A stretch of 64,000 nucleotides of DNA from Escherichia coli (GTDB taxonomy: Bacteria; Pseudomonadota; Gammaproteobacteria; Enterobacterales; Enterobacteriaceae), in NCBI RefSeq assembly GCF_003018255.1, contig NZ_CP027440.1. One strand, 5' to 3'. Shown one piece after another: positions 8,485 through 49,166 of the stretch. The translations under genes were made by a program, and so were the position numbers. The notes below the pieces were generated by a model. It was not told the DNA's origin and made no database searches. It saw only the letters and a list, made by a program, of their open reading frames with translations. The first letter of the stretch is position 1. Every line of letters starts with the position of its first letter.

Positions 8485-9768
8485 ATGGAATCCCTGACGT
8501 TACAACCCATCGCTCGTGTCGATGGCACTATTAATCTGCCTGGTTCCAAGAGCGTTTCTAACCGCGCTTTATTGCTGGCGGCATTAGCACACGGCAAAAC
8601 AGTATTAACCAATCTGCTGGATAGCGATGACGTGCGCCATATGCTGAATGCATTAACAGCGTTAGGGGTAAGCTATACGCTTTCAGCCGATCGTACGCGT
8701 TGCGAAATTATCGGTAACGGCGGTCCATTACACGCAGAAGGTGCCCTGGAGTTGTTCCTCGGAAACGCCGGAACGGCAATGCGCCCGCTGGCGGCAGCTC
8801 TTTGTCTGGGTAGCAATGATATTGTGCTGACTGGTGAGCCGCGTATGAAAGAGCGCCCGATTGGTCATCTGGTGGATGCGCTGCGCCTGGGCGGGGCGAA
8901 GATCACTTACCTGGAACAAGACAATTATCCGCCATTGCGTTTACAGGGCGGCTTTACTGGCGGCAACGTTGACGTTGATGGCTCCGTTTCCAGCCAGTTC
9001 CTCACCGCACTATTAATGACTGCGCCTCTTGCACCGGAAGATACGGTGATTCGTATTAAAGGCGATCTGGTTTCTAAACCTTATATCGACATCACACTCA
9101 ATATGATGAAGACGTTTGGTGTTGAAATTGAAAATCAGCACTATCAACAATTTGTCGTAAAAGGCGGGCAGTCTTATCAGTCTCCGGGTACTTATTTGGT
9201 CGAAGGCGATGCATCTTCGGCTTCTTACTTCCTGGCAGCAGCAGCAATCAAAGGCGGCACTGTAAAAGTGACCGGCATTGGACGCAACAGTATGCAGGGT
9301 GATATTCGCTTTGCTGATGTGCTGGAAAAAATGGGCGCGACCATTTGCTGGGGCGATGATTATATTTCCTGCACGCGGGGTGAACTGAACGCTATTGATA
9401 TGGATATGAACCATATTCCCGATGCGGCGATGACCATTGCCACGGCGGCGTTATTTGCAAAAGGCACCACCACGCTGCGCAATATCTATAACTGGCGTGT
9501 TAAAGAGACCGATCGCCTGTTTGCGATGGCAACAGAACTGCGTAAAGTTGGTGCGGAAGTAGAAGAGGGGCACGATTACATTCGTATCACTCCACCGGAA
9601 AAGCTGAACTTTGCCGAGATCGCGACATACAATGATCACCGGATAGCGATGTGTTTCTCGCTGGTGGCGTTGTCAGATACACCAGTGACGATTCTTGATC
9701 CCAAATGCACGGCCAAAACATTTCCGAATTATTTCGAGCAGCTGGCGCGGATTAGCCAGGCAGCCTGA
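8485..9768 (+). CDS. aroA: 3-phosphoshikimate 1-carboxyvinyltransferase (EPSP synthase)
   Basis: 427-aa ORF; translation matches AroA. Confidence 0.97.
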
Positions 9769-20345: not shown

Positions 20346-21271
<926 letters not shown>

Positions 21272-21424
21272 TTTCACTTCACGACACTCCAGCCAATTTT
21301 GGGAGGAGTGTCGTACCGTTACGATTTTCCTCAATTTTTCTTTTCAACAATTGATCTCATTCAGGTGACATCTTTTATATTGGCGCTCATTATGAAAGCA
21401 GTAGCTTTTATGAGGGTAATCTGA

Positions 21425-22318
21425 ATGGAACAGCTGCGTGCCGAATTAAGCCATTTACTGGGCGAAAAACTCAGTCGTATTGAGTGCGTCAATGAAAAAG
21501 CGGATACGGCGTTGTGGGCTTTGTATGACAGCCAGGGAAACCCAATGCCGTTAATGGCAAGAAGCTTTAGTACGCCCGGAAAAGCCCGACAACTGGCATG
21601 GAAAACCACCATGCTGGCAAGAAGTGGGACTGTCCGTATGCCGACTATTTATGGTGTGATGACGCATGAAGAACACCCCGGCCCCGATGTCCTGCTACTG
21701 GAGCGGATGCGTGGTGTTTCGGTGGAGGCACCAGCCCGAACACCAGAACGCTGGGAACAACTCAAAGATCAAATCGTTGAAGCCTTACTGGCCTGGCACC
21801 GTCAGGACAGTCGCGGTTGCGTCGGCGCGGTCGACAATACTCAGGAAAATTTCTGGCCCTCATGGTACCGGCAACATGTTGAAGTGCTATGGACCACGCT
21901 CAATCAGTTCAATAACACCGGTCTAACGATGCAGGATAAGCGGATCCTGTTTCGTACTCGCGAATGTCTCCCGGCATTATTTGAAGGCTTTAACGACAAT
22001 TGTGTGCTGATTCACGGTAACTTCTGTTTACGCAGCATGCTGAAAGATTCGCGCAGCGATCAGTTACTGGCGATGGTCGGGCCGGGACTAATGCTTTGGG
22101 CACCGCGGGAATACGAACTGTTCCGACTAATGGATACTTCTCTGGCGGAAGATTTGCTCTGGAGTTACCTGCAACGCGCGCCAGTGGCGGAGTCGTTCAT
22201 CTGGCGGCGTTGGTTGTATGTGTTATGGGATGAAGTTGCGCAACTGGTTAATACCGGACGATTTAGTCGGCGCAACTTCGATCTGGCATCAAAATCACTC
22301 TTGCCGTGGCTCGCCTGA
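21425..22318 (+). CDS. ycbJ: uncharacterized kinase-like protein YcbJ
   Basis: 297-aa ORF; matches YcbJ; 3' end overlaps elyC on the opposite strand. Confidence 0.88.
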   Translation: MEQLRAELSHLLGEKLSRIECVNEKADTALWALYDSQGNPMPLMARSFSTPGKARQLAWKTTMLARSGTVRMPTIYGVMTHEEHPGPDVLLLERMRGVSVEAPARTPERWEQLKDQIVEALLAWHRQDSRGCVGAVDNTQENFWPSWYRQHVEVLWTTLNQFNNTGLTMQDKRILFRTRECLPALFEGFNDNCVLIHGNFCLRSMLKDSRSDQLLAMVGPGLMLWAPREYELFRLMDTSLAEDLLWSYLQRAPVAESFIWRRWLYVLWDEVAQLVNTGRFSRRNFDLASKSLLPWLA

Positions 22319-23074
22319 CGAACTTTTTAGCCACTGCCAGATACGGCCAAGCGTTTCATAGCCAACACGATCGCTATGCATCAACCAGACCGGAGAAGGG
22401 ATTGCCCGTTCCCACGGGTTAAGCGGCGAGTCGATGGCCAACTGATTCGCCGGGGCTGGCAGCGGATTTAACCCTTCCTGCTGAAAAAAGATCATCGCCC
22501 GCGGCAAATGAGACGCGGATGTCACCAGCAGGAAAGGGGCGTCACCAATCGCCTGTTTCACTGCCGCAGCTTCTTCTTCGGTATCTTTTGGCAAATCCAG
22601 AGTGATAATTTGCTCGCGCGGCACGCCCAGCGATTGCGCAACTCGGGCACCTACTTCGGCTGTACTCACCGTATTGGTTTTTGCTACGCCTCCCGTGAAG
22701 ATCAGTTTTGATCCCGGATTTTCGCGCCATAAGCGAATACCTTCATTCAGGCGGGGCAGACTGTTATTGATTAAATTCGAGCTTGGTGCCCACTGCGGGT
22801 TCCAGGTATAACCACCTCCGAGCACCACGATATAGTCCACTTTTTGCGAATTATTCCATGTCGGATAGGTGCTTTCGATGGGACGCAGCAGGCGGTCGGC
22901 TACCGGTTGCAAACTCAATAACAAGAGCGCCAGCCACCCAATGCTAATAAAAATCTTCCCGGTTTTTTGAAAACGGCTAAACCACAGCAGCGCCAGGCCA
23001 GCGCCAATAATCAACAACATTAGCGGAAGTGGCAGCAACATATTGCCAATCACTTTTTTCAGTGTAAAAAGCAT
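22295..23074 (-). CDS. elyC: envelope biogenesis factor ElyC (DUF218)
   Basis: 259-aa ORF with N-terminal transmembrane helices; matches ElyC (YcbC). Confidence 0.9.
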   Translation of the reverse strand: MLFTLKKVIGNMLLPLPLMLLIIGAGLALLWFSRFQKTGKIFISIGWLALLLLSLQPVADRLLRPIESTYPTWNNSQKVDYIVVLGGGYTWNPQWAPSSNLINNSLPRLNEGIRLWRENPGSKLIFTGGVAKTNTVSTAEVGARVAQSLGVPREQIITLDLPKDTEEEAAAVKQAIGDAPFLLVTSASHLPRAMIFFQQEGLNPLPAPANQLAIDSPLNPWERAIPSPVWLMHSDRVGYETLGRIWQWLKSSSGEPRQE

Positions 23075-23209
23075 CCTTTCTGGTTCCTTTTTTAACCATA
23101 TAGCAAGGGATCGCCAGCGATATTACACCAGACGGGTTCATTCTCGCCGTGGCTGTGACAAAATAGCGTCTTTATCAGAAAACGTCTTAGCCAACCGGTG
23201 GAGAAAGCA

Positions 23210-23995
23210 ATGCAGGATCGCAATTTTGATGATATTGCGGAAAAGTTTTCCCGTAACATTTACGGCACCACCAAAGGGCAGCTTCGACAGGCTATTCTGT
23301 GGCAGGATCTCGATCGCGTGCTGGCGGAAATGGGCCCGCAAAAACTGCGTGTGCTGGATGCTGGCGGTGGAGAAGGGCAGACCGCAATCAAAATGGCTGA
23401 GCGCGGGCATCAGGTCATTTTATGCGATCTTTCTGCGCAGATGATCGACCGCGCAAAACAGGCGGCAGAAGCAAAAGGTGTGAGCGACAACATGCAATTT
23501 ATACATTGCGCCGCTCAGGATGTTGCTTCACATTTGGAAACGCCCGTTGATCTGATATTGTTCCATGCGGTGCTCGAGTGGGTGGCCGATCCCCGCAGCG
23601 TATTACAGACCCTGTGGTCAGTGTTGCGTCCAGGCGGTGTGTTGTCGTTAATGTTCTACAATGCGCACGGCTTGCTGATGCATAACATGGTCGCCGGGAA
23701 TTTTGATTACGTGCAGGCGGGAATGCCGAAAAAGAAAAAACGGACGCTTTCGCCAGATTATCCACGCGACCCGGCGCAGGTTTATCTGTGGCTGGAAGAA
23801 GCTGGTTGGCAAATTATGGGTAAGACAGGCGTTCGCGTGTTTCATGATTATCTGCGCGAGAAGCACCAGCAGCGCGACTGCTATGAAGCATTACTTGAAT
23901 TAGAAACGCGTTATTGCCGTCAGGAACCGTATATTACCCTGGGGCGTTATATTCATGTCACCGCGCGCAAACCGCAGAGCAAGGATAAAGTATGA
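23210..23995 (+). CDS. cmoM: tRNA 5-carboxymethoxyuridine methyltransferase (SAM-dependent)
   Basis: ORF 23198..23995 begins at GTG; known N-terminus MQDRNFDD at ATG 23210; 261 aa; SAM-binding LDAGGGEG; first gene of the smtA-mukFEB operon. Confidence 0.92.
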
Positions 23996-49134: not shown

Positions 49135-49166
49135 TTATTTCTTCGAATTCCTCTTTATAAGATAAT

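Follow-up and report, generated by a model that had tools for sequence, protein, structure and literature searches.

The window is the whole stretch of 64,000 nt analysed, from Escherichia coli (assembly GCF_003018255.1, contig NZ_CP027440.1). Its gene order is pflB ... msbA-lpxK-ycaQ-ycaR-kdsB-ycbJ, then elyC on the opposite strand, then cmoM-mukFEB. ycbJ (21425–22318, plus strand) encodes 297 aa, ending ...KSLLPWLA. elyC, formerly ycbC (22295–23074, minus strand), encodes 259 aa, ending ...SSGEPRQE. Both coding sequences are given by the ORF listing, RefSeq, Pfam and NCBIfam. YcbJ is a YcbJ family/APH-type phosphotransferase of unknown function, with a Pfam APH match and a match to NCBIfam PRK10593 over its full length (1–297 of 297). 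ElyC is a DUF218 envelope biogenesis factor, with Pfam DUF218 at residues 80–231 and a match to the NCBIfam ElyC equivalog over its full length (1–259 of 259). The same gene ends are found in the RefSeq/PGAP annotation of a genome 100% identical over the locus. In the RefSeq annotation of K-12 MG1655 (ycbJ 971752–972645, elyC 972622–973401) the overlap is the same 24 nt. A sigma-70-like promoter match (GTGACA-17-CATTAT) lies upstream of ycbJ at 21365–21393 on the plus strand; it is a consensus match only, and is weak taken alone, the scan giving 2 matches against 2.9 expected in shuffles.

The coding sequences of ycbJ and elyC share 24 nt at 22295–22318, read directly from the window as tcactcttgccgtggctcgcctga. 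The frames lie antisense to each other and are codon-aligned. The plus strand reads S-L-L-P-W-L-A-stop (YcbJ), the minus strand S-G-E-P-R-Q-E-stop (ElyC). Read on the opposite strand, each TGA stop is a TCA serine codon of the partner gene: the elyC stop (22295–22297) is antisense to Ser290 of ycbJ, the ycbJ stop (22316–22318) to a serine codon of ElyC. The first-pass annotation had described a convergent overlap of 24 bp at this position, and its coordinates are exact, the ORF listing and RefSeq being in agreement. Start or stop reassignment, which it had named as a way for the overlap to disappear, leaves the overlap in place: neither stop is open to reassignment, because both proteins match NCBIfam equivalog models end to end. 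Its further statement that each mRNA enters the coding region of the other holds logically for full-length messages. Because each stop sits inside the partner gene, a full-length ycbJ or elyC mRNA runs at least 21–24 nt into the partner coding sequence; the full-length mRNAs are complementary over at least 24 nt, and the premise of that annotation is therefore correct.

Codon usage within the shared segment was counted in 74 overlapping sequences; these statistics ignore phylogeny and are therefore indicative, not formal tests. Ser290 is TCA in 71 of 74, against 7.5% of the serine codons elsewhere in ycbJ, and is antisense to the TGA stop of elyC. The three remaining loci carry TTA or CTA at Leu291; there a substitute antisense stop arises, and the overlap is 21 nt. 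Ala296 is GCC in all 54 sequences with alanine (29% elsewhere in ycbJ; antisense GGC, Gly). Pro293 is CCC in 66 of 74 (24% elsewhere in ycbJ; antisense GGG, Gly, where CCG would give Arg). Leu291 and Leu295 are CTC in 59–68% (14.5% elsewhere in ycbJ; antisense GAG, Glu). Leu292 varies freely among four codons, none dominant, and no elyC constraint is visible there. Of the 74 overlapping loci, 71 have TGA as the ycbJ stop. Among members of the Citrobacter freundii group, in which elyC does not reach Ser290, that serine codon drifts among TCA, TCT and TCG. Loss of the elyC stop would add 34–124 codons to ElyC in the four other species tested, and 2 in the E. coli of the window. On this codon evidence the 24 nt are held by the YcbJ protein sequence, by the elyC stop and by a mild S-G-x-P-G-x-x preference in the ElyC tail. 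Despite this preference, the tail is replaced or shortened in some lineages.

Conservation was surveyed with one genome per species in the best 80 of 289 related loci. All are Enterobacteriaceae with YcbJ identity of at least 81%; Klebsiella, Yersinia, Serratia and similar genera fall outside this set. Set aside were L067 (Leclercia NCTC13032, with an apparent elyC frameshift and a truncated locus), L081 (truncated) and the elyC body of L003 (truncated). Among these best 80, 79 loci were evaluable. An overlap of 21–36 nt is present in 73 of the 79 species loci, in about 20 genera. It is exactly 24 nt in 66, 21 nt in 5, and 36 nt in 2, where ycbJ reads through to GSTF and stops. The genes do not overlap and are separated by a 35–117-nt spacer in 4 loci (C. 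freundii group). In 1 locus, of an Escherichia sp. with ElyC ending in WLKG, the stops abut with an overlap of 0, and in 1 the junction is unresolved. Taken together, the frequency of the overlap in these best 80 of 289 loci and the visibly constrained synonymous sites point to an overlap in excess of chance. The pair is a convergent overlapping coding pair: both genes are real and conserved, they share 3' nucleotides, and the constraint on these goes beyond the expectation for a single gene.

YcbJ is a narrow family with hundreds of homologues of 297 aa. The C-terminal ...LLPWLA persists in homologues with as little as 33% identity; L292, P294 and W295 do not vary. Seven other E. coli/Escherichia sequences were aligned with the window: the 24 nt are invariant in five typical E. 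coli strains, and two divergent strains differ at ycbJ-synonymous sites alone, one of them changing PRQE of ElyC to PGKE.

Exact-protein look-ups gave four more distant lineages. In a Dryocola/Cedecea/Buttiauxella-type locus the genes overlap by 21 nt. A Plesiomonas-type locus keeps the convergent DUF218 gene with no overlap, the genes being separated by a 30-nt spacer with a strong hairpin. One further lineage has the convergent pair with a 107-nt spacer. In the remaining one (L084, 2501–4287; YcbJ 44% identical) ycbJ is followed directly by cmoM, without elyC; the msbA-lpxK-ycaR-kdsB-ycbJ block can therefore exist without elyC. The convergent pairing is older than the overlap, because distant lineages keep the pair with a spacer, and from this distribution the overlap would be a derived state of Enterobacteriaceae. 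In the Plesiomonas-type locus (L086, 2030–2060) the hairpin is perfect over 11 bp (GGAATAACCGC...GCGGTTATTCC) and spans the ycbJ stop and the spacer; it may serve as a bidirectional 3'-end element in the absence of overlap.

In the C. freundii group ElyC is intact, with 254 aa and the ending ...WLKGSEH. The spacer at the junction presumably belongs to the REP/BIME type, the consensus of which it resembles. This REP-like sequence (L006, about 1364–1480; L017, L018 and L031, just after 3394) separates the genes by 35–117 nt, and the ElyC tail becomes SEH (AEH or REH in L018 and L031). The overlap thus appears to have been lost in this group through a REP-like insertion, a natural uncoupling of the two genes. 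No obvious loss was seen in the lineages without the overlap.

A perfect 10-bp inverted repeat, GAAGTTGCGC (22232–22241) and GCGCAACTTC (22270–22279), with 28 nt between the arms, lies within ycbJ codons 270–285, 15 nt from the elyC stop. Compared with dinucleotide shuffles, the minus-strand fold scores z = -3.28. With synonymous recodings as the reference (peptide unchanged), z is -3.6 (plus) and -2.6 (minus) in the window; the mean over 80 loci (best 80 of 289) is about -1.2, and values are about 0 in Citrobacter and Salmonella. The hairpin is more stable than its synonymous recodings in Escherichia, Enterobacter and Leclercia; inner-stem pairing in the Enterobacter type is offset by one base. 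Pair counts indicate an outer stem largely fixed by conserved codons (DEV/NFD), with few two-sided or compensatory changes. The hairpin is followed by GAUCUGGC (plus) or AUCCCAUA (minus), in neither case a U-tract. It was rejected as the terminator of ycbJ because it precedes the ycbJ stop; it may stabilise the 3' end of elyC mRNA. No intrinsic terminator (G+C-rich hairpin with U-tract) was found at the junction on either strand of 22232–22420, and no Rfam match on either strand of 21000–23600 at E up to 1.

A second inverted repeat, ATCTGGCA (22281–22288) and TGCCAGAT (22335–22342), flanks the overlap and was rejected as a chance occurrence. By an arithmetic estimate, about 0.5 such 8-mers are expected in the 401-nt scan. 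One arm coincides with the conserved DLA codons of YcbJ, the other with the conserved IWQ codons of ElyC; folding of the plus strand here is unremarkable (z = -0.65).

Published transcript ends for MG1655 were mapped to the window by an offset of 950327. The primary Term-seq 3' end of kdsB, seen in two conditions, lies at 21317 on the plus strand (MG1655 971644; Adams et al. 2021, PMC7815308), and the upstream operon therefore ends before ycbJ. A Rho-dependent termination region on the plus strand peaks at 21793 (MG1655 972120), nt 369 of the 894 of ycbJ (PMC7815308). Reads number 135 upstream and 18 downstream of it without bicyclomycin, a fall of about 7-fold, and 192 and 140 with bicyclomycin (Rho score 5.47; p = 5e-12); these data, from one sampled condition ('LB 0.5'), have a coarse resolution of 800-nt windows and do not show where transcripts end. 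The same study's curated Term-seq list gives no 3' end for ycbJ or elyC or at MG1655 9722xx–9727xx, where low expression could hide one. The position of the peak within the gene points to early termination of ycbJ, or to its poor translation, in LB. Because plus-strand coverage falls about 7-fold across the Rho region, the overlap seems to be reached by little ycbJ-sense RNA in LB/standard conditions. ElyC reportedly matters at low temperature, and the 3'-end data used here cover other conditions.

The overlap is annotated and already published; it is real, conserved and ordinary. The dual-coding constraint and the conservation survey are new here. According to a preprint of 2025, the two genes overlap in opposite orientation, and deletion of ycbJ therefore inactivates elyC (10.1101/2025.02.11.637708). 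ExcludonFinder (NAR 2025) lists ycbJ-elyC among 165 convergent "excludons" seen in half or more of 58 MG1655 RNA-seq samples (PMC12288877). Convergent overlaps account for 75 of 663 overlapping adjacent pairs in E. coli K-12 (Huvet & Stumpf 2014, PMC4161906). The first 50 kb of the window contain 4 convergent junctions, 2 of them overlapping (ycbJ/elyC, 24 nt; zapC/ycbX, 4 nt). Bacterial convergent overlapping pairs share with the present one conserved genes on opposite strands, a short overlap at the stop positions and reduced synonymous variation. Nothing essential sets ycbJ/elyC apart from them; its overlap is longer than that of zapC/ycbX, and its length is unusually stable (24 nt in 66/79 loci, best 80 of 289).

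The locus is probably best explained as an ordinary, ancient tail-to-tail coding overlap, a conserved structural by-product whose 3' ends are formed mainly by Rho; this reading is favoured, with some reserve. Two real genes converge, and neither an intergenic spacer nor an intrinsic terminator separates them. The short tail that follows the conserved ...GRIWQWLKG of ElyC, its final 7 codons, is antisense to the final 7 of YcbJ, where the conserved SLLPWLA is encoded. Protein-level selection keeps the YcbJ residues; the elyC stop and a preference for Gly over Arg in the ElyC tail keep the synonymous positions. Dual coding suffices to explain why the 24 nt are conserved in sequence. The overlap probably arose in the ancestor of Enterobacteriaceae, by loss of the spacer and/or by movement of the elyC stop downstream, since Plesiomonas-type and more distant relatives keep the pair with a spacer of 30–107 nt. 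It would persist because any change must satisfy both genes. Each transcript would pass its own stop into the antisense strand of the partner, remain untranslated there and be ended mainly by Rho; that of elyC is possibly trimmed back to the hairpin at 22232–22279. Since both genes are natively expressed at a low level, the effect of complementarity on protein output is judged to be small and not that of a dedicated regulatory device.

Suppression of antisense and read-through RNA by Rho (PMC7815308) offers a comparison for such ends. RNA past each stop is untranslated antisense, the usual substrate of Rho, and a significant plus-strand Rho region is called at the ycbJ locus. The peak, however, lies inside ycbJ and not past its stop, and no minus-strand region is called downstream of elyC. 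Two further observations may be set against the by-product reading. Deep convergent conservation and the excludon listing would also be expected from selected regulatory coupling; higher synteny is reported for excludon pairs in general (PMC12288877). The advantage of the hairpin over synonymous recodings in Escherichia, Enterobacter and Leclercia hints at selection at the RNA level.

Ranked second is a functional excludon, in which ycbJ and elyC would antagonise each other's expression through their complementary 3' regions, by RNase III cleavage of the duplex and/or head-on interference of polymerases. It is considered unlikely, but less so than the alternatives below. The pair belongs to the MG1655 'excludome' on the published sample threshold, overlap of the full-length mRNAs is unavoidable, and convergence is conserved out to Plesiomonas-type genomes and overlap across Enterobacteriaceae. 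The listing, however, is close to automatic for overlapping coding sequences, because all that the tool requires is overlap between the transcription units, as defined by coverage, of convergent neighbours. Capture of dsRNA with p19 failed to validate convergent excludons, according to the ExcludonFinder authors (PMC12288877), and reciprocal expression data for ycbJ and elyC were not found in the literature searched. Rho already cuts plus-strand RNA short within ycbJ; members of the C. freundii group, like distant lineages, get by without the overlap, whose sequence conservation dual coding accounts for well enough. Excludons of the Listeria model (PMC12288877) are likewise opposite-strand neighbours with overlapping transcripts. 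The transcript overlap of ycbJ and elyC differs in stemming from the coding overlap and not from a long antisense-acting UTR; the class is defined by mutually exclusive expression (interference or RNase III), and ycbJ/elyC is listed from RNA-seq coverage. Antisense interference between the two genes, as proposed by the first-pass annotation, is plausible and probably weak; for pairs of this kind it has been suggested in general terms. A functional excludon, if true, would tie envelope homeostasis (ECA/peptidoglycan precursor) to an uncharacterised kinase-like protein.

Ranked third, and improbable, is a hairpin-based, collision-type bidirectional terminator, in which 22232–22279 pauses polymerases travelling in both directions and sets both 3' ends. 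The repeat is perfect over 10 bp and close to the elyC stop, and folds better than both shuffles and synonymous recodings. Bidirectional terminators at convergent E. coli genes need not resemble intrinsic ones (10.1101/2022.10.23.513370), and the Plesiomonas-type spacer bears a strong hairpin. A plus-strand end just past the hairpin would, however, leave ycbJ mRNA without a stop codon, so that elyC would be served at most. Citrobacter and Salmonella retain the overlap with a weak hairpin or none at all; the outer stem of the hairpin is largely codon-fixed, with few two-sided changes; and no Term-seq 3' ends are called at the junction. Overlapping bidirectional terminators (Ju et al. 2019; 10.1101/2022.10.23.513370) share with this locus a convergent pair, an inverted repeat near the junction and the absence of a canonical U-tract. 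They differ in that the ycbJ hairpin is upstream of the ycbJ stop, not between two 3' ends, and is not flanked by mapped ends. No element lies between the coding ends here, there being no spacer, and the only significant repeat is inside ycbJ, at least 16 nt upstream of the overlap. Such terminators are moreover described as Rho-independent (10.1101/2022.10.23.513370), whereas the plus-strand drop in ycbJ is Rho-dependent.

A bolder form of regulatory coupling is doubtful to a similar degree. The overlap, the hairpin and the old synteny would together form a selected cis-coupling device that makes production of YcbJ and ElyC mutually exclusive, for example under changes of temperature or envelope stress. 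If true, it would place the YcbJ phosphotransferase in the ElyC pathway (undecaprenyl-phosphate/ECA/peptidoglycan precursors). An annotation artefact, in which one ORF end is miscalled and the genes do not truly overlap, can be dismissed: no support was found for it beyond an ElyC tail that is short, variable at three positions and missing in some lineages, and against it stand stop codons fixed by the sequence, full-length matches of both proteins to curated NCBIfam equivalog models, clear purifying selection on the elyC stop position and the deeply conserved YcbJ C-terminus.

As an ordinary coding overlap, ycbJ/elyC matters mostly in practice, for genetics; it is a textbook example of dual-coding constraint and opens no new question. 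Since the stop codon of each gene falls within its neighbour, a deletion aimed at one may also impair the other. In the Keio design the last six codons and the stop (21 nt) of the deleted ORF are reportedly retained. By this rule, deletion of ycbJ would remove 22295–22297, the elyC stop, and deletion of elyC would remove 22316–22318, the ycbJ stop. Such a stop loss fits the remark of the 2025 preprint on ycbJ deletion, in which the overlap is blamed for an elyC-like phenotype (10.1101/2025.02.11.637708). Phenotypes bearing on YcbJ function therefore need clean alleles.

Several minor features were recorded. The ElyC allele of the window (...WLKSSS..., 22319–22345) is rare, the common alleles being WLKGSS or WLKGPS; over 22260–22350 only 3 of 5425 E. 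coli genomes are at least 99% identical to the window. In E. coli R9 (NZ_CP107164.1; L094, 1–1514) prophage genes (tail fibre, recombinase) replace all sequence upstream of a junction situated some 14 nt beyond the elyC stop; the 3' end of ycbJ is gone there and elyC is intact. An IS200C transposase gene at 9271–9729, between aroA and ycaL, is probably a strain-specific insertion. The zapC (plus)/ycbX (minus) overlap of 4 nt lies at 49138–49141 and is also in the ExcludonFinder list.
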